64,000 nucleotides of DNA from contig JALOQK010000002.1 in assembly GCA_025453395.1 (NCBI GenBank), positions 241,102-305,101 on the forward strand, written 5' to 3'. Position 1 is the stretch's first letter. Each line of letters starts with the position of its first letter. The translations under genes were made by a program, and so were the position numbers. Under the pieces are notes generated by a model, which did not search any database, was not told where the DNA came from, and saw nothing but the letters and a program-made list of their open reading frames with translations. Shown here piece by piece: positions 6,859 to 58,258 of this stretch. The stretch is from Candidatus Omnitrophota bacterium (GTDB lineage: Bacteria; Omnitrophota; Gorgyraeia; Gygaellales; Profunditerraquicolaceae).

Positions 6859-6859
6859 A

Positions 6860-7138
6860 TTATGATTTCAGGGTTATAAAGAATACTACCGAAGAGATAA
6901 TGCAAAGAATCCCTATGGCCACTCGCTTGTTTAATAGCCACTCATGAAAGGTCATTATGTTTTTTTCTACAACCAGTATTTTCTTTATTTTTACCGGCAT
7001 GATATTTTGCGCCAGTTTTTCTTCAAGGATGCGGTAATTAGAGTAGACAGCGATAATTACTCCTATAACAAAAAGTAACGGGCTGGACCAAAAGAAAATA
7101 ACCCTTAAAGCTGTGATAACAGTTAAAACGTCTTCCAT
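6860..7138 (-). CDS. Small hypothetical membrane protein (two predicted TM helices)
   Basis: ORF with two hydrophobic segments, tightly packed between the kinase gene and the next ORF. No recognisable domain. Confidence 0.4.
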   Translation of the reverse strand: MEDVLTVITALRVIFFWSSPLLFVIGVIIAVYSNYRILEEKLAQNIMPVKIKKILVVEKNIMTFHEWLLNKRVAIGILCIISSVVFFITLKS

Positions 7139-7150
7139 ATCGCCTCCTTT

Positions 7151-11102: not shown

Positions 11103-11840
11103 TTAAATTATTTTGTCAGTTATTTGTTTTAAGGCTGTCAATGCTTGCGAATTGTTTTCAAGCGAGAAAACGCAACTAGCGTTAATGCCTATTTTTATTA
11201 ATTCGGCATCTTGCGGGATGTACCCTGCGATTTGCATGCCGGTAGTATTTTTAAGTATTATATTTTCATCAGCGCAGTTTAGAAGCAGCAATATCTTTTT
11301 TGTTTTTACTTTTAATTCTTTTACCAGTTCATTTACTCTCGCGGCAGCTTTCATGCTGACCGCATTTGGGTTTGCCAGAATAATCAAACTATCAGCATGG
11401 CGCGTGGTGCGCCGGGAAAAATGTTCCAGGCCTGCTTCGTTATCCATAATGACATAGTCATATTCAGCAACTAATTTGCCCATCATATTGCGCAAGAGAT
11501 TGTTCACGTAGCAGTAGCATCCCGGGCCTTCGGGCCTGCCCATAGTTAAAAGATCAAAACCCTCTTCTTCAGAAATAGCCGTGTGGATTTGGTATTCAAT
11601 GAAATTCTCTTTGCTGGTTCCGGCGGGGATCTTTTCCGGATGAGAAGATATCTCTTCTAATAGCGAGCCAATAGTTTTCCCCTCTTCAATCCCAAGCGCC
11701 TGTCCCAAATTGCTATTAGGATCAGCATCTATCGCTAAGATAGACCCGGATTTTCTTTCTTTTAATATCCTGACCAAAAGCGCAGCGATGGTGGTTTTTC
11801 CTGTGCCGCCTTTTCCTGATAACGCGATTATGTAACCCAT
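11103..11840 (-). CDS. cooC: CooC/AcsF-type Ni-insertion ATPase (MinD/ParA family)
   Basis: Deviant Walker A GKGGTGKTT and the CooC-characteristic CxC metal motif (EGPGCYCYVN). Confidence 0.8.
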   Translation of the reverse strand: MGYIIALSGKGGTGKTTIAALLVRILKERKSGSILAIDADPNSNLGQALGIEEGKTIGSLLEEISSHPEKIPAGTSKENFIEYQIHTAISEEEGFDLLTMGRPEGPGCYCYVNNLLRNMMGKLVAEYDYVIMDNEAGLEHFSRRTTRHADSLIILANPNAVSMKAAARVNELVKELKVKTKKILLLLNCADENIILKNTTGMQIAGYIPQDAELIKIGINASCVFSLENNSQALTALKQITDKII

Positions 11841-12131
11841 AAAATTAAAAATTTAAAATGAAAAATGTAAAATCAAAAGATAAAACCAAGAATATAATAT
11901 AGTGTTAAGAAATAAAAGCTTAGAATTCAAACAAGTGTGCGTTAAATAAATATTAAAAATCTATGATAAATCGTCCTGATTCTTTATTTTCTTGTTACTT
12001 CGCTATTTTTTATGATCTTTTTAATTTTTTGTATCTAGATTTTTAAATTTTAAATCTTTTCTTATCACTATCTTTAGCCGTTTCTTATACTTCTTTGTAT
12101 CTGTAGCTTTTTAATTTTGAATTGTTATTTT
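11841..12131. repeat. AT-rich intergenic repeat element, copy A. It has imperfect terminal inverted repeats and an internal direct repeat.
   Basis: The left arm aaaaatttaaaatgaaaaatgtaaaatcaaaag is approximately the reverse complement of the right arm gaattgttatttttcattttgaatttctcattttgaattttt. The internal direct repeat ttgtatctagatttttaaatttt (12027..12051) recurs as ttgtatctgtagctttttaatttt (12093..12118). Confidence 0.5.
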
Positions 12132-13979
12132 TCATTTTGAATTTCTCATTTTGAATTTTTCTAAGTCCGTATGCGGAAAGAATAATGCCGCCATATATTC
12201 TTCCATATATCCGGGTTGGTTAGACAGATCTATATATGTTGTTTTATTGGCTATTTCTAGAGATTTTGCTTTTGCCGGGATTGAAAAAATGATCTCCCTG
12301 GCTCCTCTAATGGAGCTGTTTCCGACAAACAGAAATTTGCCTTTTTCTAAATCTGGAAGCAGTCCTATTGCTATTGAGTCTTGAATGTCCAAATAAGTGC
12401 CAAAGCCTCCGGCAATAAAGAATTTGTGCACATCTTTAAAGGAAAATCCCATGTGTTTTATTAATGTTTCTGCCGCGGAATAAATCGCAGCTTTAGCGCG
12501 CTTAATATTCTCAATATCTGATTCGGTAATAATTATTTCTTCAGCTGCGTTGGATTGGCCCTGATGGCAGACAATAAAAGCTCTTCCCAGATCAGTATCT
12601 TTTATTTTTGAGGGGTTTTTAATCTGGATATTGCCTGCTTTGTCAATAATCCCTTTTTCCAGCATTTGGGCGATAAGCGAGATGTATCCAGACCCGCAAA
12701 TGCCTAAAGCCGGCACATCCCCGCCTATTATCTGAAAGCTTGTATCAAGGCTTCTGTTATCTATGGATACTTTTTGGATCGCCCCCCGAGAAGCGCGCAT
12801 GCCGCAGGATACTCCTGAGCCTTCAAAAGCCGGTCCGGCGCTGGCGGCACAAGATATCAGGAATTCTTTATTGCCAAGGACTATTTCTCCGTTTGTGCCT
12901 ATATCAATCAAGAGCGAAAGGTGTTCCTGTTGGTCTAATGAGCAAGCCAGTATTCCGCTTGTGATATCCCCTCCCACATAACTTGCTACTGCTGGTATGG
13001 GCATAAGTACGCCGCGCGGATTTATAATGATACCGGCTTCAACCGCATGTATAGACGGGAAAGAATTAGCTACGGGGGTATACGGGTCACGGCGGATAAA
13101 AGAAGGGTCGGTTTTTAAGAGGATATGCGTCATAGTGGTATTGCCGGCGCAGATTATAAAGTATACATTGTTTAAGTCTACCTGGTGCTGTTGGATCAAT
13201 TCCCGGATAATATCATTTATTTGCCCGGTAACAATACTGTGCAGTTTCTCTAACCCTTCAGAGTTCTTGGCAAAGATAATGCGGGTAATCACGTCACTGC
13301 CGAAACTGGCTTGCTTATTGTAACAGGCAGAAGCCCCCAATGACTTTCGGTTGTTTAGATCTACAAGCTCGCCGGTTATGGTAGTGGTTCCGATATCAAA
13401 ACAGAAACCGTAATTTTTGCTTGTTGTGTCACCCGGCTCTATGTGAATAACTTCAAATATTGTTTCCCTGTAAGCAAGGGTAATTGTAATTTGCCAGTTT
13501 GAATCTCTCAGAATTTCTGCGATTTGCCTTAAAGTAGTTATGCCTATAGTTATGCTTCCAAGGTTATATTTGTCTATTTCCCGCGTTATCCTTTCCCAAT
13601 CGCTTAAAGGGTCATTTGGCTTGGGCGCAGGCAATTTCAAAAATATTTTCTTAACCAGCGGTAATTGTTCAAAGCCGGTATTGCCCAAGGATATTTTAGA
13701 CAGTTCTATTTCCTGGGCATCGGTTTTTTCAAAGATCAATCTTGATTGTTCCGGTATTTCTACCTGCATATCTTCTTTTACTATGGTTAAGCAGGCAAGT
13801 TTAGATACGGAAATTCCTTTATCCTTGATGATCACTTTGCATTGCCCGCAGGTGCCTTCGCCTGCGCAGGCGGATTTAATATAGTTTGCGCAGGATATTG
13901 CCGCGGAAAGCACAGTTGTCCCCTTGGGGACTTCTACTGTTTTTCCTTCAGGGTAAAAAGTTACTTTACATTTATCCAT
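12132..13979 (-). CDS. Reductive activator of corrinoid iron-sulfur protein (RACo): [2Fe-2S] ferredoxin plus ASKHA ATPase
   Basis: N-terminal plant-type ferredoxin Cys pattern (CAGEGTCGQC...C) followed by an actin/HSP70-fold ATPase region. 615 aa, typical of RACo. Confidence 0.8.
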   Translation of the reverse strand: MDKCKVTFYPEGKTVEVPKGTTVLSAAISCANYIKSACAGEGTCGQCKVIIKDKGISVSKLACLTIVKEDMQVEIPEQSRLIFEKTDAQEIELSKISLGNTGFEQLPLVKKIFLKLPAPKPNDPLSDWERITREIDKYNLGSITIGITTLRQIAEILRDSNWQITITLAYRETIFEVIHIEPGDTTSKNYGFCFDIGTTTITGELVDLNNRKSLGASACYNKQASFGSDVITRIIFAKNSEGLEKLHSIVTGQINDIIRELIQQHQVDLNNVYFIICAGNTTMTHILLKTDPSFIRRDPYTPVANSFPSIHAVEAGIIINPRGVLMPIPAVASYVGGDITSGILACSLDQQEHLSLLIDIGTNGEIVLGNKEFLISCAASAGPAFEGSGVSCGMRASRGAIQKVSIDNRSLDTSFQIIGGDVPALGICGSGYISLIAQMLEKGIIDKAGNIQIKNPSKIKDTDLGRAFIVCHQGQSNAAEEIIITESDIENIKRAKAAIYSAAETLIKHMGFSFKDVHKFFIAGGFGTYLDIQDSIAIGLLPDLEKGKFLFVGNSSIRGAREIIFSIPAKAKSLEIANKTTYIDLSNQPGYMEEYMAALFFPHTDLEKFKMRNSK

Positions 13980-15326: not shown

Positions 15327-15516
15327 CTCCTTTTAAAAATGAACTTTGTTAAAGATTAAACGTGAAAAATGCAAAATTAAAATTCAAAACTAAAAATTAA
15401 ATCCAAAAAATAAGTAAGATATTATTCACTGCGTGTATTTTATTATATTTGTGGTCTTTTTTGCTTTTAATTTTAAATTATAATTTTACGCTTTTAGTTT
15501 TTAATTTTTAGTTTCC
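15327..15516. repeat. AT-rich intergenic repeat element, copy B
   Basis: Shares the gaaaaatgcaaaattaaaa and gcttttaattttaaatt motifs with copies A and C. Internal inverted symmetry (aaaactaaaaattaaa versus tttaatttttagttt). Confidence 0.45.
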
Positions 15517-16188
15517 TTATTTGTTTATCAAGTTAGCGAAATATCCCGCGCCAAAACCGTTATCAATATTTACTACCGTTATCCCAGCGGAACAGGCGTT
15601 TAACATGGTAAGCAGCGCCGATAGCCCTTGGAAACTGGCTCCGTATCCGCAGCTTGTGGGAACAGCAATAACCGGAGATTTTACTAAGCCGCTGACCAAG
15701 CTTGCTAACGCCCCCTCCATGCCCGCCACAACAATAATAACATTTGCCTGCTTGATTATATCAATATTAGAAAAAAGACGGTGTACTCCAGCTACCCCAA
15801 CATCGTAAAGCCTTTTTACTTTACTGCCGCCTATTTCCGCGACGATGGCGGCTTCTTCAGCTATCGGGATATCTGAAGTGCCGGCGCATACAACGGCAAT
15901 AATTTTGTGTTTTTTGACAGGTTTATTAAAAGTTATGAAAGCAAGCCTTGCTTCGCCGCTGTATTTTAAAGAAGGGTAGAATTTTTTAAGGTAAGAAAAT
16001 TTATCCCTGTCAAGGCGGGTTAAGATGACATCTTCCTTATTCTTTAAAAGGGCCGCGGTAATTTCTTTAAGCTGTTTTTTATTCTTGCCCGGTGAATATA
16101 CCGCCTCAGGATAACCCCTTCTTTGCCTTCTATTTGTATCCAGTTTTGCAAAGCCTAAATCGCAAAAGCCGGAATTTTCACAATTCAT
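15517..16188 (-). CDS. LarB-like PurE-family protein (nickel-pincer nucleotide cofactor biosynthesis carboxylase/hydrolase homologue)
   Basis: LarB N-terminal motif DTNRRQRRGYPEAVYSPGK and a PurE-like core (VVAGMEGALASLVSGL...PTSCGYG...NIDNGFGAGYFA). Confidence 0.65.
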   Translation of the reverse strand: MNCENSGFCDLGFAKLDTNRRQRRGYPEAVYSPGKNKKQLKEITAALLKNKEDVILTRLDRDKFSYLKKFYPSLKYSGEARLAFITFNKPVKKHKIIAVVCAGTSDIPIAEEAAIVAEIGGSKVKRLYDVGVAGVHRLFSNIDIIKQANVIIVVAGMEGALASLVSGLVKSPVIAVPTSCGYGASFQGLSALLTMLNACSAGITVVNIDNGFGAGYFANLINK

Positions 16189-16192
16189 TTAG

Positions 16193-16525
16193 TTAATATC
16201 CTCGCAAAATCACTAAGATAATCAATACGATCAGGATAGTGCTTAATATGTAAAAATCGTTGAAATACAAAAAGTCGCTTATTCTTTCTTTTAAGCAGTA
16301 TCCGCTGTAAGAAGGTTGTTTATTAAGCAGGTTTTTGTTTTTTTGGCGGTATTCTTCTACCTGATGGCGCTTAAACCTAAGGTATACCCCTGCTATTTTA
16401 TAGGCAGGGATTTCGCCTTTTTCCGCCAGCTCAATAACTTCTTTTTCTGTTACTCCCAGCGCAATAGAAACATCTCTTATGGTAATAAGTTTTTCGTCAG
16501 CCATTTTTATATAGATATTGTACAT
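16193..16525 (-). CDS. Excisionase-family HTH DNA-binding protein with a C-terminal TM helix
   Basis: The HTH ITIRDVSIALGVTEKEVIELAEKGEIPAYKIAGVYLRF matches the excisionase/MerR-type helix-turn-helix. The C-terminus ILSTILIVLIILVIL is hydrophobic. Confidence 0.55.
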   Translation of the reverse strand: MYNIYIKMADEKLITIRDVSIALGVTEKEVIELAEKGEIPAYKIAGVYLRFKRHQVEEYRQKNKNLLNKQPSYSGYCLKERISDFLYFNDFYILSTILIVLIILVILRGY

Positions 16526-16615
16526 TAGCCGATTGAAAAACCCGGCTAATCATCAACTTTAACAAGCCCAGACCAAGATTCGGGGTAGTCGCGGTTGATT
16601 TTGTTAAAAGAAAGG

Positions 16616-17119
16616 TTACTTTCCGATTTTTCCTGATGCTATCCAGGAGTCAATAGCTTTCCTGTCGAATCTCCAGCCTTCTCCTTCTTTGATTGCGGGT
16701 ACTTTTCCGGAATTGGCCCATTCTAATATGGAATTTAAATCAACTTCAAGGTACCGCGAAAGCTCATCTGTATTCAGAAAATCGTGCAGCATCATGCATT
16801 TGCCTTCTAGTATCGCGCCTTCGGCCACATTTAATTTTGCCGGGTAGATATCGCCTTCTACAAGCGCTGATGGCAGAAGGGTTAATCTTTCCCTGGCGGT
16901 AATATGCCCCTTGACTTTCCCCCCAACAATAACGTTATCCCCGATTATATCCGCGCAGACAACCGCAGTTTGGCCTATGGTTAAATTTCCTTTTATTTCC
17001 AGGTTGCCTTCAAACCTGCCATTGATGCGTAAATTTACCGGTTCCTTAAAGCTTAATGACCCTTGCATTGCTGCGTCCACATCAAGGATTTTTTCTTCTT
17101 GTTTCTTTTTAAAGGCCAT
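16616..17119 (-). CDS. Bactofilin-domain protein fused to a C-terminal excisionase-type HTH
   Basis: Residues ~25-115 show a bactofilin beta-helix repeat pattern (NLEIKGNLTIGQTAVVCADIIGDNVIVGGKVKGHITA...VEGDIYPAKLNVAEGAILEG). The C-terminal ELSRYLEVDLNSILEWANSGKVPAIKEGEGWRFDRKAIDSWI is paralogous to the HTH of the upstream gene. Confidence 0.65.
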   Translation of the reverse strand: MAFKKKQEEKILDVDAAMQGSLSFKEPVNLRINGRFEGNLEIKGNLTIGQTAVVCADIIGDNVIVGGKVKGHITARERLTLLPSALVEGDIYPAKLNVAEGAILEGKCMMLHDFLNTDELSRYLEVDLNSILEWANSGKVPAIKEGEGWRFDRKAIDSWIASGKIGK

Positions 17120-22032: not shown

Positions 22033-23487
22033 TTATATTTTAGGTTTAACCTTATACAGCTGTGCATCCTGTTGATATATGTAAGCTACGCGCAAAAGCA
22101 TTTCTTCATCAAATGCCTTTGCCATAAGCTGCATTCCAATAGGAAGATTAGATTTGGTAAAACCGCAAGGTATGGATATAGCCGGGATCCCCGCCAAATT
22201 AGCTGAAATGGTATAGACGTCGGATAAATACATTTTTAAAGGGTCGCTTATCCTCTCGCCTATCTTAAACGCAGGCGTTGGCGAAGTAGGCGTGATGATG
22301 CAGTCGCATTCCTTAAAAACCGCGTCAAAATCATTTTTGATCAGCGTCCTGACTTTCATCGCGCGCAGATAATAGGCATCATAATAACCATGCGATAACA
22401 CGAATGTGCCTAAAATAATCCTTCTTTTGGCCTCTATCCCGAATCCATCTTGGCGGGTATTTTTATACATATCCATTAGATTTGATGACGCGCTGCGCAA
22501 TCCATACTGCACAGCGTCAAAACGCTCCAGATTTGAACTGGCTTCAGCGGTTGCCACAATATAATATACTGGCACGGCATATTGAGTATGCGGCAGGCTT
22601 ATATCTTTTATTATCGCGCCTAAACTTTTGAGTTTCTCTTTTGCTTCTTGTATCTTTGCTTTTACTTCTGTGTCTAAACCTTGCACAAAGTATTCTTTGG
22701 GCATGCCAATCTTAATCCCCTTGATGTCCGCCCCGAGTATCTTAGTGTAATCCGGAACAGGCATATCCGCTGATGTGGAATCCATGGGGTCATGCCCGCT
22801 TATGTATTTTAGCAATAAAGCGCAATCTTCAACATTCTTGGTGATCGGGCCTATCTGATCAAGGCTGGAGGCAAAAGCGATTAATCCATAGCGTGAAATC
22901 CTGCCATATGTAGGCTTTAGTCCTACTACCCCGCAGAAAGAAGCGGGCTGGCGTATGGAGCCGCCGGTATCTGAACCTAAAGCAAAAAAAGCCTCGCCTG
23001 ATGAGACTGCGGCCGCCGAACCTCCGGAAGAGCCCCCGGGAACACAACTTAAATCCCAGGGGTTATGAGTTACGCCGAAAAAGGAATTTTCTGTGGATGA
23101 GCCGAAGGCAAACTCGTCCATATTAGTTTTTAGTTCAAATATGCTGGCACCCGCTTGCTTTAATTTGCCTACTACCGTGGCGTCGTAAGGCGGCTTAAAT
23201 TTATCAAGGATTCTTGAACAGCATTGCGTAAGGCTGCCTTTTGTGCAGATGTTATCTTTAACAGATATGGCAAGGCCTTTAAGGGGAAGCGTTGATTCGC
23301 CGTGCTCTTCTTGCTGGGTTTGTTGCGAGAGATCATTTCTGCGCACATAGGCGTTGGTTTTATCTCCTATAGACTTGATCCTCTGCCTCAATTCTTGATT
23401 ATAATTTAAGCCAGAAGCCTTTTTCTGATGAATCAAATCTAGGATTTCAGTAACGCTTAAATGTATATTTTCCATTAGCTTATTCAA
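22033..23487 (-). CDS. gatA: Asp/Glu-tRNA amidotransferase subunit A (amidase)
   Basis: Amidase signature [11 protein letters not shown] and the Ser-cisSer-Lys triad region. Confidence 0.95.
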
Positions 23488-27097: not shown

Positions 27098-27142
27098 TAA
27101 CCAATTTACCAAATCCCAAGTTGCAAACAATATCCAATAATC

Positions 27143-27238
27143 AATAACCAAATGCCAAACGGTTTGATTATTGGAAAATTGGTAATTGGTTATTATTTGG
27201 TGATTGGAATTTGATTATTGGTTATTTTAATGATTGCT
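27143..27238. terminator. Hairpin and tandem-repeat region between convergent genes (candidate bidirectional terminator)
   Basis: Stem ccaataatcaataacc/ggtttgattattgg (27143..27194), followed by repeats of ttgattattgg, ttggtaattgg and ttggtgattgg. It lies between the stops of the GH94-like gene and the outer-membrane protein gene. Confidence 0.4.
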
Positions 27239-27239
27239 A

Positions 27240-41425: not shown

Positions 41426-41440
41426 AATTTTAATCCTCCT

Positions 41441-41608
41441 TTAATACTAGGTTAATTAAAAATTTAAAGTGTAAAATTAAAAATTACAGCGTAAAATCTA
41501 AAACTTTGAAAACAAAAAGCTTAAAGCGCAAAATGATAAGCAAAATTAGAAATTTTGAATTTTACTCTATACTTTTAGGCTTTTCGCTTTACGTTTTTAG
41601 TTTTTAAA
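41441..41608. repeat. AT-rich intergenic repeat element, copy C
   Basis: Shares gtaaaat-containing motifs (aaagtgtaaaattaaaaattacagcgtaaaatctaaaac) and a right-arm motif cgctttacgtttttagtttttaaaat, similar to cgcttttagtttttaatttttag in copy B. Confidence 0.4.
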
Positions 41609-42039
41609 ATAGCAGGTAAAATAAGCCGGGTTCTGTATAATTGTGGCCATTTCTCTAGTCCTTAAAGCCTTACAGCAAAGGATCAAGCAGCCTACCCGCC
41701 CGGCTTCCTCAAAATCAGAGGCATCGACTGGGACTTCTCCGTCCTATCTTTCGATAGGAACGCCGGGCCTATTTGGCCTTGCTCCACGTAGAGATTGCTC
41801 GTTTCACCCCCCGCCGCTTTGCTTCGCTTTGCGAAGCAAAGCGGCGCCAATACTGGAAAAACCAGCTTAAGCGGCGGGATCCTAAAATTAAGGATATCCT
41901 ACTCAAAATTAATTGAGTGATGGGCGTTGCCCACTACGTTTACCCTGCGGAGCCCGGACTTTCCTCCCCCCCGCTGTTTTGCTTTTGCAAAAGCAAAAGC
42001 AAAACAAGACGCGGGGGCAGCCACATTTTACCTGCTATC
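41609..42039 (-). ncRNA. rnpB: RNase P RNA, bacterial type A
   Basis: Minus-strand sequence carries the universally conserved GGAGGAAAGUCCGGGCUCC (P4 5' half) and ACAGAACCCGGCUUA (P4 3' half). P1 is formed by 5' AGCAGGUAAAAU and 3' AUUUUACCUGCU. There are extended GC-rich hairpins (the UUUUGCUUUUGCAAAAGCAAAA and GCCGCUUUGCUUCGCAAAGCGAAGCAAAGCGGCGG inserts). The ends are approximate, within about 5 nt. Confidence 0.85.
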
Positions 42040-52767: not shown

Positions 52768-54222
52768 CTAATTTAACTGGCAGATTATTTCAAATTCAAC
52801 TATCTCGGTACCTTTACTTTTCTTTTTTGTGACATAACGCAGCTTTGCCGGGATCTTTTTAAAGCCGCTAGCGTTTTGTAGTTTTGACATGAAAGAAAAA
52901 ACATTTTCCAGGGAATCAGTTTGCGCGCGCATAAGTATCTGTTTCTCTGCTTCATAATCAAAAGAAAGAAGCGATATATTGTCCGGGGCTACTTTATATA
53001 ACTCATACATCTTATCAAAAAGAGCCACTCTTTGCGAATGCCTTTTTTCAAAGAAATCAAACCTCTTCTCTATTTCTTCCAGCTGCTTGGCCTCTGATGA
53101 CATATATACAAGTTCGTCTTTTAATTTCCCCAAATAAAGCTTTTTATTATCAATGTGTTTTAATACTCCTACTACCAATAAAGCGCAGGCGCCTATAAAG
53201 ATAGCCAGTAACTTCATGCGCTCACGCCAAAGATAGGCTTTTCTTAAGCGTTCCTTATAATCTTCAGCCAAAAGGTTTAGCGAATCATTAAGTTTAACTA
53301 AACCAAATCCAATAAGGTTAGTATAAAGATCTTTATCCTGCTCTATCTTTTCCGCCACGTTCTTAATCACCGGCCAATTCATGTCTATGGGGCAGACTTC
53401 TACCGGCACTTCTACTTCTTCTGAAGTGGCTTCTATGGCTGAAGCGGGAATTTCCTCTTTGGATATAAAGATTATCTTCTTGGGTTTTTGCTGGGATATT
53501 TCCTTTAAATACGCGTCGCGGGTCTTGCGCACCTCTTCGGCTAAAACATTTTCCCATTGTGGAGAGTTTCGGTTAACCTTAAAATAGCGGCTATAGAGAA
53601 GTTTTTGGTTGTTTACTACCGCCACCTCCACTGCCTTGGGGTTAAAATTCACCAAAAGAAGAGTGTCTTTGTCTTGCGGCTTTACATAGGAATAAAAATT
53701 GCTTAAACCATAGGAGCCTAAAACAATATTAAACCTGCGCGGCCTTAACTCTTCCACTATTTTAAGATGTTTCTCTATGACGTTGCGCAAGACAATGATC
53801 AGGTTAACATGAGAATAGCCGTCTTTATCAACATTGACGATTTCATAACCGCTTATTAATTCTTCCGGAGGATACGGCAGGTATCTGGAAACCTGAAAAG
53901 ACAATATTCTTTCGATTTCCGGGACAAAACGCGTGGGGATCTTTAAATAGCGGCAGGTTACAAGATTTCTGGGCACAGAAACTATGATGTAATTATTTTT
54001 ATACCCAAGCTGCCGGAAGATATCGTGGATCTTAGTAGCAGATCCGGCCTGTTCAGCGGCAAGAGAATAGGTTTTTAAATCAACGAAATATTTGCTTCTT
54101 TTATCAACAGCGCAATGAGCAATACTTAAGATTTCATCTGTTATCTGGAAGATAAAAGCAGAATCTTTAGTTTTATATTTAATGCTCGCTGATTTCGGGA
54201 TAAGGTTATCTCTATTGTTCAT
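52768..54222 (-). CDS. GspL-like protein: a cytoplasmic actin-like (PilM-type) domain fused to TM and PilN-like periplasmic parts
   Basis: At 484 aa it is about the length of PilM plus PilN. There is a single internal TM helix (LKLLAIFIGACALLVVGVL) about 140 aa from the C-terminus. It sits between gspK and gspM-like. Confidence 0.55.
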   Translation of the reverse strand: MNNRDNLIPKSASIKYKTKDSAFIFQITDEILSIAHCAVDKRSKYFVDLKTYSLAAEQAGSATKIHDIFRQLGYKNNYIIVSVPRNLVTCRYLKIPTRFVPEIERILSFQVSRYLPYPPEELISGYEIVNVDKDGYSHVNLIIVLRNVIEKHLKIVEELRPRRFNIVLGSYGLSNFYSYVKPQDKDTLLLVNFNPKAVEVAVVNNQKLLYSRYFKVNRNSPQWENVLAEEVRKTRDAYLKEISQQKPKKIIFISKEEIPASAIEATSEEVEVPVEVCPIDMNWPVIKNVAEKIEQDKDLYTNLIGFGLVKLNDSLNLLAEDYKERLRKAYLWRERMKLLAIFIGACALLVVGVLKHIDNKKLYLGKLKDELVYMSSEAKQLEEIEKRFDFFEKRHSQRVALFDKMYELYKVAPDNISLLSFDYEAEKQILMRAQTDSLENVFSFMSKLQNASGFKKIPAKLRYVTKKKSKGTEIVEFEIICQLN

Positions 54223-55231
54223 ACCAGGATATAATTTTACTTTCTTCTATTTTATCATGATTTCTGTAATAAATACAATTAATTTTTCGTTTTAAGTTTT
54301 TATTTTCTAAAACTGCTTCAGAAGAAATCTTGAAATAGTCTGAACTGGCGCTCATTTTATTGCCTAGCGCAGCAAGCACTGTTTGATATTTGATATCTAG
54401 ACTAAGAAATGTCGGCGAAAGAACTTTTGTATTTTCAAAGTGCCCGATTTCGTTACGCTTGCTAAGTATGGCATTGGTTATTTCTCCTGTTGCCTCATCA
54501 GATAAGCTTGCGGCTTTAACACAACTTAGGACTAGTATTCTTAAAACATCTTCCCCAACAGTATTAATATTAATTTTATCTCCTGAACAAACAAAATAAT
54601 CCTGCAGAATAGCGTAAGCCTTAAAACCTTCTTCCAGATAGGTTTCCTGATTTATATTTTTAAAATAGTATTGCAGAGGATAAACTAACTCCTCTATTAC
54701 TGTTAAAGATGCTTTTTTAAACCCAGCGTATTTATCCGCTTTTAAATCTTCATCACTAGCCTGATTATCCTTCTTTCTTTGTATGCAGATATCCTCAACT
54801 AAGGCATCAGGATCAGTAATCCCGTCAATTTTCTCCGTAACGATTGATTTTATTATTTCCCTGTCAACGGTGTTTATATTGAAACGCCTTTCTTCATCTT
54901 CTATGTGCACGCTAAAAGAATACGGATCATCATCGCGTATTCTTATATTACTGAAAATATCCGAATTGGTCTTGGCATCTATCCCCGTAGACCAGGTTTC
55001 ATCAAGGCCGTCGTAGTTTTTCGCATCGTAATCTTTTAACCACTTTACCGCCTTATTTACTCCTGCCTGCGCCATTAAGTATGCCTTCAGCCTTTGATAA
55101 TAGGTCTGTGAAGCCTTTAGATTAAAATAAGCTCTTCTGCCTAAAGTCAAAGAAAAAACAACCAAGATAAAAAGTAGCCAAAGGCTGAAGATAAGTATAG
55201 AACCGGTATTTCTTTTATTTTTCATTAACAT
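54212..55231 (-). CDS. GspK-like minor pseudopilin
   Basis: N-terminal hydrophobic segment ILIFSLWLLFILVVF without Glu5, and about 330 aa as for GspK. Confidence 0.6.
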   Translation of the reverse strand: MLMKNKRNTGSILIFSLWLLFILVVFSLTLGRRAYFNLKASQTYYQRLKAYLMAQAGVNKAVKWLKDYDAKNYDGLDETWSTGIDAKTNSDIFSNIRIRDDDPYSFSVHIEDEERRFNINTVDREIIKSIVTEKIDGITDPDALVEDICIQRKKDNQASDEDLKADKYAGFKKASLTVIEELVYPLQYYFKNINQETYLEEGFKAYAILQDYFVCSGDKININTVGEDVLRILVLSCVKAASLSDEATGEITNAILSKRNEIGHFENTKVLSPTFLSLDIKYQTVLAALGNKMSASSDYFKISSEAVLENKNLKRKINCIYYRNHDKIEESKIISWYEQ

Positions 55232-57049: not shown

Positions 57050-58258
57050 TTACCGCACAATTAAATTAATCTGGAATATCGGCAACAACATGGAAATTAC
57101 AATAAAACCTACGACCAGGCCCATAAAAAGAATTACCGCCGGCTCTACAAGTTTGCTTATTGTCTTTAAGAAAGAATCCACCTCTTTTTCATAGTCATCC
57201 GAAATACGCACCAACGCCTTTTCCAAGGTCCCGCTTTCTTCGCCCACGGTAATAACATTCATAATAAGAGGCGGAAATAATTTTGAATCCTTGATACTAT
57301 TGGAAAGGCTTTTGCCTTCGCTTATATCGTCCTTAACCTTTAAGATCTCCGCTTTAATGATTTTATTATCCAATAGTGAAGCTGAGATATCAAGCGCCGG
57401 CACGATAGTGACTCCGCTTGAAATCAAAAGCGATAACGTGCGCATCATCCTGCTTATCTCGCTTTTAAGGATGATGTCGCCAAAAATAAAAACTTTAAGT
57501 TTTAATTTATCGCAATGCATCCTTCCTTCATCGCTTTGATAGTATCGATATAGCACAAATCCAACCAGGGCAATAAAACCTAAAGCCATCCACCAATATT
57601 GCCTGAGCATCTGGGATGAATCTATGAGGATTCTGGTGGGAACCGGCAAGGCTTGCCCCATATCATCAAACATCACCACTAACCTGGGGATAACAAATCC
57701 CATTAAAACGCCTATGGTCAATACCCCCACGCAAAACACAAACGCCGGGTAAATCAGGGCCCCTTTTATGGAACTTTTAAATTCTTCTTCTTTCTCCAGG
57801 AATGTCGCTAATCGGCTTAAAGTTTTATCCAATGTTCCGCCAACTTCCCCGGAATGCACCATGGAAACATATATGGCCGGGAATAATTCTTTATGCTTAG
57901 ACAGGGCCTCGGAAAGCGGGATCCCGTCTTTTATTTTGCTTGCGATATCCCTTAAGACAATCTTAAAATGCTGGTTCGGGCTCTGATCGCCTATGATGCT
58001 TATCCCGTTAATAATGTTTACCCCGGAACCAACCAGGCTGGATAATTGCGTGGTAAATTGCACGATATCTTTTTTTGAAATACGGGACACCTTCAGGAAA
58101 TTATCTTTAATGAAGAACGTTTCTTCGGGGATGATGCTTATAGGGTAGAGGCCTTTTTGGGCAAGCTTGTCTATCGCGTCTTGCTGGGATTGGGCGTCGA
58201 CAATTCCGCTTGCGGCTTTCCCGGGGCCAGATTTGGCGCTATACTTATAACGTGGCAT
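57050..58258 (-). CDS. gspF: Type II secretion / type IV pilus platform protein GspF/PilC
   Basis: Two T2SSF repeats and three TM segments. Confidence 0.9.
   Translation of the reverse strand: MPRYKYSAKSGPGKAASGIVDAQSQQDAIDKLAQKGLYPISIIPEETFFIKDNFLKVSRISKKDIVQFTTQLSSLVGSGVNIINGISIIGDQSPNQHFKIVLRDIASKIKDGIPLSEALSKHKELFPAIYVSMVHSGEVGGTLDKTLSRLATFLEKEEEFKSSIKGALIYPAFVFCVGVLTIGVLMGFVIPRLVVMFDDMGQALPVPTRILIDSSQMLRQYWWMALGFIALVGFVLYRYYQSDEGRMHCDKLKLKVFIFGDIILKSEISRMMRTLSLLISSGVTIVPALDISASLLDNKIIKAEILKVKDDISEGKSLSNSIKDSKLFPPLIMNVITVGEESGTLEKALVRISDDYEKEVDSFLKTISKLVEPAVILFMGLVVGFIVISMLLPIFQINLIVR

Follow-up and report, generated by a model that had tools for sequence, protein, structure and literature searches.

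A heptad-armed foldback between acsV and a cooC-like gene of an Omnitrophota bacterium is probably the gene-less relic of a PF05635 cassette

A 64,000-nt stretch of contig JALOQK010000002.1 (GCA_025453395.1, positions 241,102 to 305,101), hereafter the window, from a Candidatus Omnitrophota bacterium carries part of an acs operon on its minus strand, in the order larB, copy B, acsC, acsV (RACo), copy A, a cooC-like ATPase gene, acsD and acsE. Copy A, the 291-bp spacer at 11841-12131, had been singled out in a preliminary description, made from the letters alone, as one of three related AT-rich elements, the others being copies B and C (Table 1). We find it probable that copy A, like B and C, is what remains, partly decayed and without its gene, of a small selfish cassette whose intact relatives encode a PF05635 protein. 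Copy A is the most decayed member in the window.

The organising feature of the three copies, missed in the preliminary description, is a 7-nt periodicity with units of the form AAAAWNN and their complement. In both arms of A, and likewise in B and C, base autocorrelation has maxima at lags of 7, 14 and 21 nt. A sliding period-7 scan of the 64 kb returned the arms of A, then B, then C, together with a hairpin at a convergent junction (27098-27239). The other calls (897-973, 22816-22887, 54107-54179 and 58184-58254) were barely over the threshold, with peaks of 0.17-0.19 as against 0.26-0.36 for A, B and C. Tandem Repeats Finder (TRF) independently called arrays of period 7/14/21 at the same coordinates.

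The link to PF05635 came from relatives outside the window. A motif of 21 nt that B and C have in common in their 5' arms was searched for in the Joint Genome Institute (JGI) metagenomes, which gave at least 120 loci. Five of these (L081, L117, L069, L027 and L075) contain a foldback with a large centre of 340-410 nt, inside which lies a homologous open reading frame (ORF) of 123-135 aa. The encoded protein, of about 125 aa and Avd-like, belongs to PF05635 ("23S rRNA-intervening sequence protein") and TIGR02436 ("four helix bundle protein"), and the one solved structure that it matches is 2rld, an uncharacterized protein of 121 aa whose entry contains five chains. Each of the five complete PF05635 genes among the motif-selected loci listed is found between an A-rich upstream and a T-rich downstream arm, with inverted-repeat z-scores from 3.5 to 13. 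Because these first loci had been chosen by motif, further cassettes were fetched by protein identity instead, which gave operon insertions at L134 (Omnitrophica), L140, L147 (Planctomycetes) and L153 (Zixibacteria). The same arms flank the gene in 4/4 of them, and all are co-oriented with their called neighbours.

In the cassettes the 5' arm runs on into the first ~10 codons of the gene (MQNQNSKLK), and intact copies are placed directly past a stop codon and directly ahead of the next ribosome-binding site. An intact cassette reads, in order, as an A-rich heptad arm, a PF05635/TIGR02436 gene of ~125 aa whose first ~10 codons lie within that arm, and a roughly complementary T-rich arm; loss of the gene would leave foldbacks of 100-300 nt, as in the window. 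Cassettes occur between co-oriented genes in Omnitrophota, Planctomycetota, Zixibacteria and other uncultured bacteria. Their proteins are ~65-72% identical across phyla, and horizontal spread is therefore suggested.

Two sequence-only models, R1 for the 3' arms and R2 for the 5' arms, were made from nine gene-bearing cassettes, none of which comes from the window, and run on the window with filters off. The seven best matches of each model in the window are all arms of the three copies (C, B and A), arranged inversely, as expected of a minus-strand cassette. For copy A, R1 matched 11833-11885 on the minus strand (E 9.2e-6) and the 5' arm on the plus strand (E 7.4e-8), and R2 matched 12108-12163 on the minus strand (E 1.4e-5) with a plus-strand counterpart at the 3' arm (E 5.2e-4); these E-values are rough, given a shortened calibration and low-complexity arms, and the ranking within the window is more reliable than the numbers. 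The corresponding values are R2 E 8.4e-7 and R1 E 2.1e-9 for B, and R1 E 9.9e-12 and 1.6e-9 and R2 E 2.3e-8 and 2.2e-6 for C. The best match outside the family has an E of 0.009 to 0.02. A weak single-arm match in this range, at 54271-54318, falls in the C-terminal coding part of an ORF (54212-55231; ..ENKNLKRKIN..) and may be due to chance, or may be an arm absorbed into the gene.

Direct comparison gave the same picture for copy A. Its best BLAST match in the 722 kb of metagenome loci listed is the arm of the L081 cassette (88.9% over 45 nt), and its 3' arm agrees with that of the Zixibacteria cassette at 33/41 positions. When aligned, A stands in heptad register with the cassette arms of four phyla, ATG included.

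On the sense strand, copy A starts A-rich and ends T-rich. Its 5' arm is made up of the units AAAAATTC AAAATGA GAAATTC AAAATGA AAAATAA CAATTC AAAATTA AAAAGC and overlaps the acsV stop together with the ~6 codons before it. An ATG at the acsV stop opens a frame, MKNNNSKLKSYRYKEV followed by a stop codon, which begins MKNNNSKLKS and ends early; cassette proteins begin MQNQNSKLKT.. or MKNYNEKLKA.., and in the arm alignment the ATG of A falls on the cassette ATG. The 3' arm (..TTTTATC TTTTGAT TTTACAT TTTTCAT TTTAAAT TTTTAAT TTT) continues straight to the cooC ATG at 11840-11838, and no Shine-Dalgarno sequence precedes cooC, the T-rich arm abutting the start codon. The gene that stands between the arms of intact cassettes is absent in A, B and C, and in A only the ATG and ~10 N-terminal codons are left.

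Several features of the spacer had been recorded in the preliminary description, and they hold. It had reported no ORF of 60 aa or more in 11841-12131, and the largest ORFs touching the spacer are of 25 and 27 aa. The internal direct repeat it placed at 12027-12051 and 12093-12118 is present at ~80% identity with indels (z 3.35 against shuffles, 7/1000). Copies aligned without gaps are 38 nt long and 71% identical, and an exact 12-mer, CTTTTTAATTTT, occurs at 12017 and 12107. The imperfect terminal inverted repeat it described is likewise there, with arms at 11841-11885 and 12108-12152 (45 nt, 78% complementary) and a second pairing of 32 nt at 84%; the right arm extends past the end given earlier, to ~12160, inside the last acsV codons.

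Table 1. Coordinates and context of copies A, B and C, their neighbours, and the cassettes fetched by protein identity
Feature	Position	Strand	Remarks
Copy A upstream (5') arm	12108..12163	-	A-rich degenerate heptads; TRF period 7/14 at 12108-12161; autocorrelation peak; R2/R1 matches
ATGA overlap	12132..12135	-	acsV stop TGA (12134-12132) overlaps relic ATG (12135-12133)
Copy A centre	11898..12107	-	Non-periodic; purine-rich, then pyrimidine-rich; direct repeat 12017-12063 and 12094-12131; small palindrome 12019-12054
Copy A downstream (3') arm	11833..11897	-	T-rich heptads; TRF period 7/14 at 11839-11897; R1/R2 matches
acsV (RACo, corrinoid activation protein)	12132..13979	-	NCBIfam NF040756, 594 bits, E 2.6e-178, under strict cut-off; RACo Pfam domains; upstream neighbour of A
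cooC-like CbiA/ParA-family ATPase gene	11103..11840	-	MGY(I/V)IA..GKGG(T/S)GKTT in relatives; downstream neighbour of A
Copy B	15327..15516	-	Between larB and acsC; 5' arm 15455-15519, 3' arm 15348-15413
Copy C	41438..41609	-	From 3' end of RNase P RNA gene to ~12 nt before yebC
Omnitrophica cassette L134			Inside atpE-x-atpF
Cassette fetched by protein			Between thpR and recA
Planctomycetes cassette			After ribBA
Zixibacteria cassette L153			Locus with uncalled upstream neighbour

The inverted repeat of A reaches a local-alignment score of 43, compared with 25.5+-4.3 for shuffled arms (z 4.1, 1/1000) and 33.8+-5.3 for arms in which the heptads were permuted (z 1.75, 57/1000). It exceeds what composition gives, yet is mainly due to both arms sharing the same 7-nt units, as the drop to 1.75 indicates. 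This speaks for an explanation by local simple-sequence DNA, in which 7-nt slippage builds the arrays, quasi-palindrome template switching makes the two sides complementary, and the likeness to B, C and the cassettes is convergence. Heptanucleotides are the commonest long simple repeats in many prokaryotes, according to Mrazek 2007 as summarised in PMC4679880. Copy A stays below significance on the compact-foldback profile described below, its heptad order is not conserved, whole-heptad differences occur between orthologous Atribacterota elements and between the copies of one locus (L115), and heptad "dialects" with no cassette link exist (window 27098-27239, L002 and L014). Against this, the cassette-arm profiles place both arms of A right after those of B and C, with E-values at least 17-fold better than the rest of the 64 kb, the cassette ATG and the order of the N-terminal codons are kept in register, and the best BLAST match of A among the loci listed is a cassette arm. 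Spacer indels between orthologous Atribacterota loci are not enriched for multiples of 7 either (8/97, from a repeat alignment that is unreliable). We regard a purely local origin of copy A as unlikely.

A compact-foldback profile (nhmmer) was built from 12 compact foldbacks, all from outside the window. Copy C matched it with E 1.9e-15 (53.2 bits, heptad-permuted controls 26.4+-6.4, 0/300) and copy B with E 3.5e-4 (24.9 bits, controls 8.7+-4.9, 1/300). C and B thus have the heptad vocabulary of the compact family as well as its heptad order; A, by this profile alone, does not. Copy C is composed of a compact foldback (41497-41608) followed by a second array resembling a 3' arm (41438-41497). 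The centre of copy B holds a promoter-like TTAAAA-N17-TATAAT at 15470-15442, and the number of such sites is not above that in shuffles.

The preliminary description had let its three-member family depend on likeness beyond AT-richness. Such likeness is found: pairwise similarity of A, B and C lies above arm-preserving shuffles (z 2.3 to 8.2), with shared blocks that are only ~75-80% identical, and the ranking by arm profiles and, for B and C, the compact-foldback controls agree. Its statement that all three lie downstream of a minus-strand gene needs one correction, in that C follows the RNase P RNA gene and not a protein-coding one. That gene (41606-42037) has 432 nt for a model of 367 positions, and holds a hairpin with three GCAAAA units (41987-42004) and a second long GC-rich repeat hairpin.

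The names RACo and cooC given earlier to the flanking genes can be kept: the former is supported by NF040756 and the RACo Pfam domains, and the latter is a CbiA/ParA-type ATPase gene whose position and sequence make it an ortholog of the cooC-like gene found in other Omnitrophota. Seven other members of the phylum have a junction of only ~5-60 nt between acsV and cooC, as compared with 291 nt in the window, and copy A is therefore a lineage-specific insertion at this place. The C-terminus of AcsV points the same way. It reads HTDLEKFKMRNSK before the stop in the window and HTDLxKFPSVK in relatives, and since the divergence begins exactly at the start of the arm, the last ~6 codons of acsV and its stop are supplied by the A-rich arm.

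In the operon, the cassette ATG of copy A would then share nucleotides with the acsV stop, and the element would account for the final ~6 codons of acsV; the 3' arm abuts the cooC start. It would presumably be transcribed as part of the acs operon, and its arms could pair. Paired arms would form a long A-U stem and place the acsV stop next to the cooC start at its base, a possible reason why an insertion of 291 nt has been tolerated in a tight operon. By analogy with the intervening sequences (IVSs) of 23S rRNA, the stem may be a substrate of RNase III. We regard copy A as mainly neutral or selfish DNA that may have incidental effects on cooC expression, and not as a dedicated regulator.

A number of results weigh against the derivation of copy A from a PF05635 cassette or against the way it would act, in addition to the roughness of the profile E-values. 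No remnant of a PF05635 gene was found in the 210-nt centre of A when five cassette proteins were compared with the whole window by tblastn. Since the centre holds no gene trace, A may never have held the gene and could stem from a gene-less copy. A gave no significant match to the compact-foldback profile (E 0.35-7; 6.3 bits, heptad-permuted controls 1.6+-4.0, 42/300). The junctions were compared among orthologs at ~50% protein identity, and the databases offered no pair of a filled and an empty site; the nearest AcsV homologue there is 56% identical, the source genome being without a close relative. The folding results are no more favourable to A. Dinucleotide shuffles gave z-scores of +1.1 for A, -1.5 for B and -1.9 for C, which were uninformative and were replaced by arm-preserving shuffles. 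With these, the hairpin z is -2.35 for B, -3.1 to -3.7 for C and only -1.0 for A, which thus folds no better than its shuffles, and A folds better on the antisense than on the sense strand (-36.9 and -29.6 kcal/mol, respectively). Among 66 heptad-bearing spacers the sense strand was preferred in 40 and the antisense strand in 25 (p 0.12), as against 89 and 27 in ordinary spacers, and gene-less foldbacks have the same orientation as the flanking genes in 19 cases and the opposite in 21. Taken together, the lack of a sense-strand preference in the 66 spacers, the better antisense fold of A and the mixed orientation argue against a strand-specific RNA function. These spacer statistics, like those given below on context, polarity, orientation and turnover, come from the motif-selected loci and are indicative only.

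Counts of G-U and A-C mismatches gave no strand signal. A MAFFT alignment of 13 compact foldbacks yielded no consensus structure in RNAalifold, their arms being displaced relative to one another by whole heptads. Taken singly, compact copies score as genuine hairpins, with z of -3 to -6 relative to arm-preserving shuffles. The predicted stems of compact foldbacks (such as L079 5148-5263, L114 4077-4186 and window 41493-41608) are broken by single mismatches, with a modal helix length of 6 bp and a modal mismatch spacing of 7.

The motif lay inside a period-7 region in 61/120 loci among the matches listed, and some loci have up to eight arrays per 8 kb. Taxa, as read from exact-protein cluster names and the names of homologues, include Atribacterota/JS1 (L111, L114, L089 and L079), Patescibacteria (L115, Minisyncoccales; L090; L092) and Syntrophobacteraceae (L014) among the loci listed. 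In Atribacterota loci every spacer is a nested foldback of several heptad dialects (TAGTCGT.., TAGCGTA.., GTATCTC.. and AAAAGCG.. in L111, L114, L041 and L105). These four strains differ by 7.6% in coding sequence and by 29% at aligned spacer positions, and in orthologous spacers the outer modules persist, whereas those at the apex have been exchanged wholesale. In locus L115 (1-5000), from the Candidate Phyla Radiation (CPR), near-identical A-rich/T-rich foldbacks occupy almost every intercistronic spacer of the spc operon L14-L24-L5-S14-S8-L6-L18-S5-L15-SecY; one of them matches the family profile, and one copy has an extra AAAAACT x3 in one arm.

These relatives bear on the possibility that copy A is a selected element of acs expression, either a promoter for cooC-acsD-acsE with UP-like DNA, an attenuator or terminator after acsV, or a hairpin for mRNA processing or stability by which AcsC/AcsV would be balanced against CooC/AcsD/AcsE. 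Heptad-bearing spacers are rarer between divergent genes (4/42) than among spacers with a gene 3' end (75/245; Fisher p 0.0045), and the A-rich half comes first in 50/66 of them, a layout shared by A, so that a U-rich tract would follow any inner hairpin. Between rnpB and yebC there is no hairpin other than copy C. In orthologous Atribacterota loci the foldback is followed on its 3' side by a canonical promoter, TTGCTA-N17-TATAAT, an arrangement that puts the foldback at the position of a terminator, and the cooC start, with no Shine-Dalgarno sequence, is embedded in a U-rich arm. The context statistics among these points derive from motif-selected loci, however. The sense strand of A has no sigma-70-like site of 9/12 or better at 16-18 nt spacing, which accords with the earlier opinion that it is not a plain promoter, whereas genuine promoters of the window are near-consensus. 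No intrinsic terminator (a G+C-rich stem-loop with a T run) was found inside A or C. All other Omnitrophota examined make do with a junction of 5-60 nt, neither sense-strand folding nor orientation is biased, spacers are replaced wholesale between Atribacterota strains 92% identical, and foldbacks stand between nearly all cistrons of the CPR ribosomal-protein operon, in which effective terminators would do damage. A dedicated role in acs expression seems to us distinctly improbable.

The preliminary description had suggested a regulatory repeat family or one resembling miniature inverted-repeat transposable elements (MITEs), and the latter is borne out in part: a longer element with inverted ends exists, of which the window copies are miniatures lacking the gene. 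This longer element encodes a PF05635 protein and no transposase. A classical DNA-transposon MITE, moved in trans by the transposase of another locus in the genome, would account for short ORF-less elements with inverted ends, for several copies per genome in either orientation, and for near-identical copies in one CPR operon and very similar ones across phyla. Yet the only longer relatives found encode PF05635, and no transposase-bearing parent with the same ends was met with. Neither A, B and C nor the compact copies show a target-site duplication, though their A/T-rich ends could hide a short A/T duplication. The window copies share just short blocks of 75-80% identity, and the arms vary in heptad content and have no fixed termini. 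We therefore hold mobilisation of this classical kind to be very unlikely. Correia elements of Neisseria are MITEs co-transcribed with neighbouring genes, and copy A and its relatives resemble them in being short, gene-less, multi-copy and intergenic, with inverted ends, in either orientation, and miniatures of a longer element. They differ in that neither target-site duplication nor transposase parent was found and in that their ends are variable repeat arrays.

Strict 7-nt spacing might also reflect an array read by a protein in steps of seven, either on DNA, as for the heptad operators of omega repressor, or on RNA, where the candidates would be cold-shock proteins or S1, which have been proposed as readers of TAACTGA repeats. 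U-rich heptads do stand directly upstream of a start codon in copy A, and heptamer repeats upstream of start codons have been discussed for Beggiatoaceae (PMC4679880). But many unrelated heptads coexist, even within one spacer, so that no single sequence-specific reader fits, and sequence turnover is very fast; a binding array is hardly credible here.

Other candidates were rejected. A small RNA gene at A would be without an Rfam match and without conservation (no Rfam covariance match was obtained in 11700-12300 at E up to 1). An assembly artefact is contradicted by the same architecture in independent assemblies and at orthologous sites. CRISPR and integron attC origins were dismissed, as no regularity of spacers or repeats and no integrase context were seen. 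Three motif matches fell on viral contigs, and the one inspected (L010) is a chance match in an AT-rich giant-virus contig.

The closest described entity to the cassettes and their relics is the 23S rRNA IVS. The IVS of Coxiella is described as a selfish element of 428 nt, with a 28-bp stem of terminal inverted repeats that is cut by RNase III, an S23p ORF in the loop, and tandem heptameric repeats just upstream of this ORF whose number varies between strains (PMC4990558). IVSs of Coxiella burnetii and Leptospira (PMC4990558) and the window elements have in common that they are small, are regarded as selfish and have terminal inverted repeats, which in the window elements could form a long stem. 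Like the intact relatives of the window copies, IVSs enclose a PF05635 four-helix-bundle ORF, with strain-variable heptameric repeats adjoining its start, and most of them are ORF-less, as are A, B and C. IVSs insert at, or replace, the apex of a hairpin, and Atribacterota foldbacks swap apex modules. The differences are that the window elements lie between protein or RNA genes (acsV and cooC in the case of A) and not in helix 25 or 45 of 23S rRNA, that their entire arms are heptad arrays, and that the family is far more numerous, reaching nearly every spacer in some Atribacterota loci. The 64-kb window contains no rRNA genes; at the gathering threshold Rfam gives only RNase P RNA and tRNAs.

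Other known systems share single traits with the family. PF05635 resembles Avd, the accessory protein of diversity-generating retroelements (DGRs; PMC10053308), and the cassette protein is in this Avd-resembling family, but no reverse transcriptase, template repeat or variable repeat adjoins the cassettes examined. Intergenic heptanucleotide repeats are known from other bacteria as direct repeats of a single heptamer (PMC4679880). These comprise long simple sequence repeats, the short tandemly repeated repetitive (STRR) sequences of cyanobacteria and TAACTGA in Beggiatoaceae, which likewise have a 7-nt unit, are intergenic, often stand upstream of starts and change in copy number. They are exact tandem arrays of one heptamer, in contrast to degenerate units in two inverted arrays tied to a cassette. 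Intergenic and intercistronic palindromes tolerated in operons, and proposed to stabilise mRNA or to terminate transcription, are also found among repetitive extragenic palindromes (REPs) and the bacterial interspersed mosaic elements (BIMEs). REPs are GC-rich units of 20-40 bp, tagged GTAG or CGTC, linked to RAYT transposases and without a 7-nt periodicity, and it is in these tags, this link and the missing period that they depart from the window elements. Inverted ends built of short tandem repeats around an optional centre recall the foldback (FB) elements of Drosophila, which have long inverted ends of short tandem repeats and an optional central segment, but are eukaryotic, much larger and unrelated in sequence.

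More tentatively, and with slightly more doubt than confidence, we propose that the spacers of the window belong to an undescribed, multi-phylum superfamily of mobile IVS-like cassettes, whose gene-less miniatures would colonise intergenic DNA and even essential operons and would constitute most of the intergenic DNA of Atribacterota (JS1), with turnover by swaps of apex modules. We found no literature describing heptad-armed PF05635 cassettes between protein genes, their gene-less derivatives or repeat-saturated Atribacterota spacers, and none on intergenic repeats of Atribacteria or Omnitrophota. How IVSs spread, and what S23p (PF05635) does, has been unclear since their first description. 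The same gene, with the same architecture of stem plus heptamers, stands between ordinary genes in at least four phyla, and gene-less derivatives occur in at least two more. This provides numerous natural insertion sites, filled as well as remodelled ones among near-identical strains, and a simple signature by which to detect them (period 7, A-rich then T-rich). If the proposal is true, 23S rRNA IVSs are only the rRNA-resident tip of a cassette family, and the many insertion sites at protein genes offer a route to how IVSs move and what the S23p/Avd-like protein does. The findings would also account for long AT-rich "spacers" in tight operons and for element-derived C-terminal tails of annotated proteins in metagenome-assembled genomes of Omnitrophota, Atribacterota and CPR. 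The acs operon itself is probably little affected.

Some further repeats and genes were noted on the way. The convergent-junction hairpin at 27098-27239 is 142 nt long, has heptads AATAACC / TTGGTTA of a "CCAAT" type, and folds with a minimum free energy of -41.3 kcal/mol (arm-preserving shuffles -19.6+-3.1, z -7); its sequence is unrelated to A, B and C, and it resembles a foldback of the bidirectional terminator type. Heptad arrays also occur in genomes that are distant or were not selected by the motif. In another Omnitrophota genome, a CGTAAAT-type hairpin lies between acsD and acsE (L002, 9624-9790). Direct arrays were seen in L008 (3120-3223, GTATCCA) and, in long form, in the Syntrophobacteraceae locus L014 (4575-5014, with AAAAACT, CACCCTT and TGCTCAC). 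Within the window, two adjoining small genes of the HTH_17/excisionase type, one of them fused to a bactofilin domain, are located at 16193-17119, just upstream of larB and copy B. The nominally intergenic region 6859-7150 contains a plausible membrane-protein ORF of ~90 aa, beginning MEDVLTVITALRVIFFWSSPLLFVIGVIIAVYSNY after AAAGGAGG, which falls below the ORF cut-off of 100 aa.

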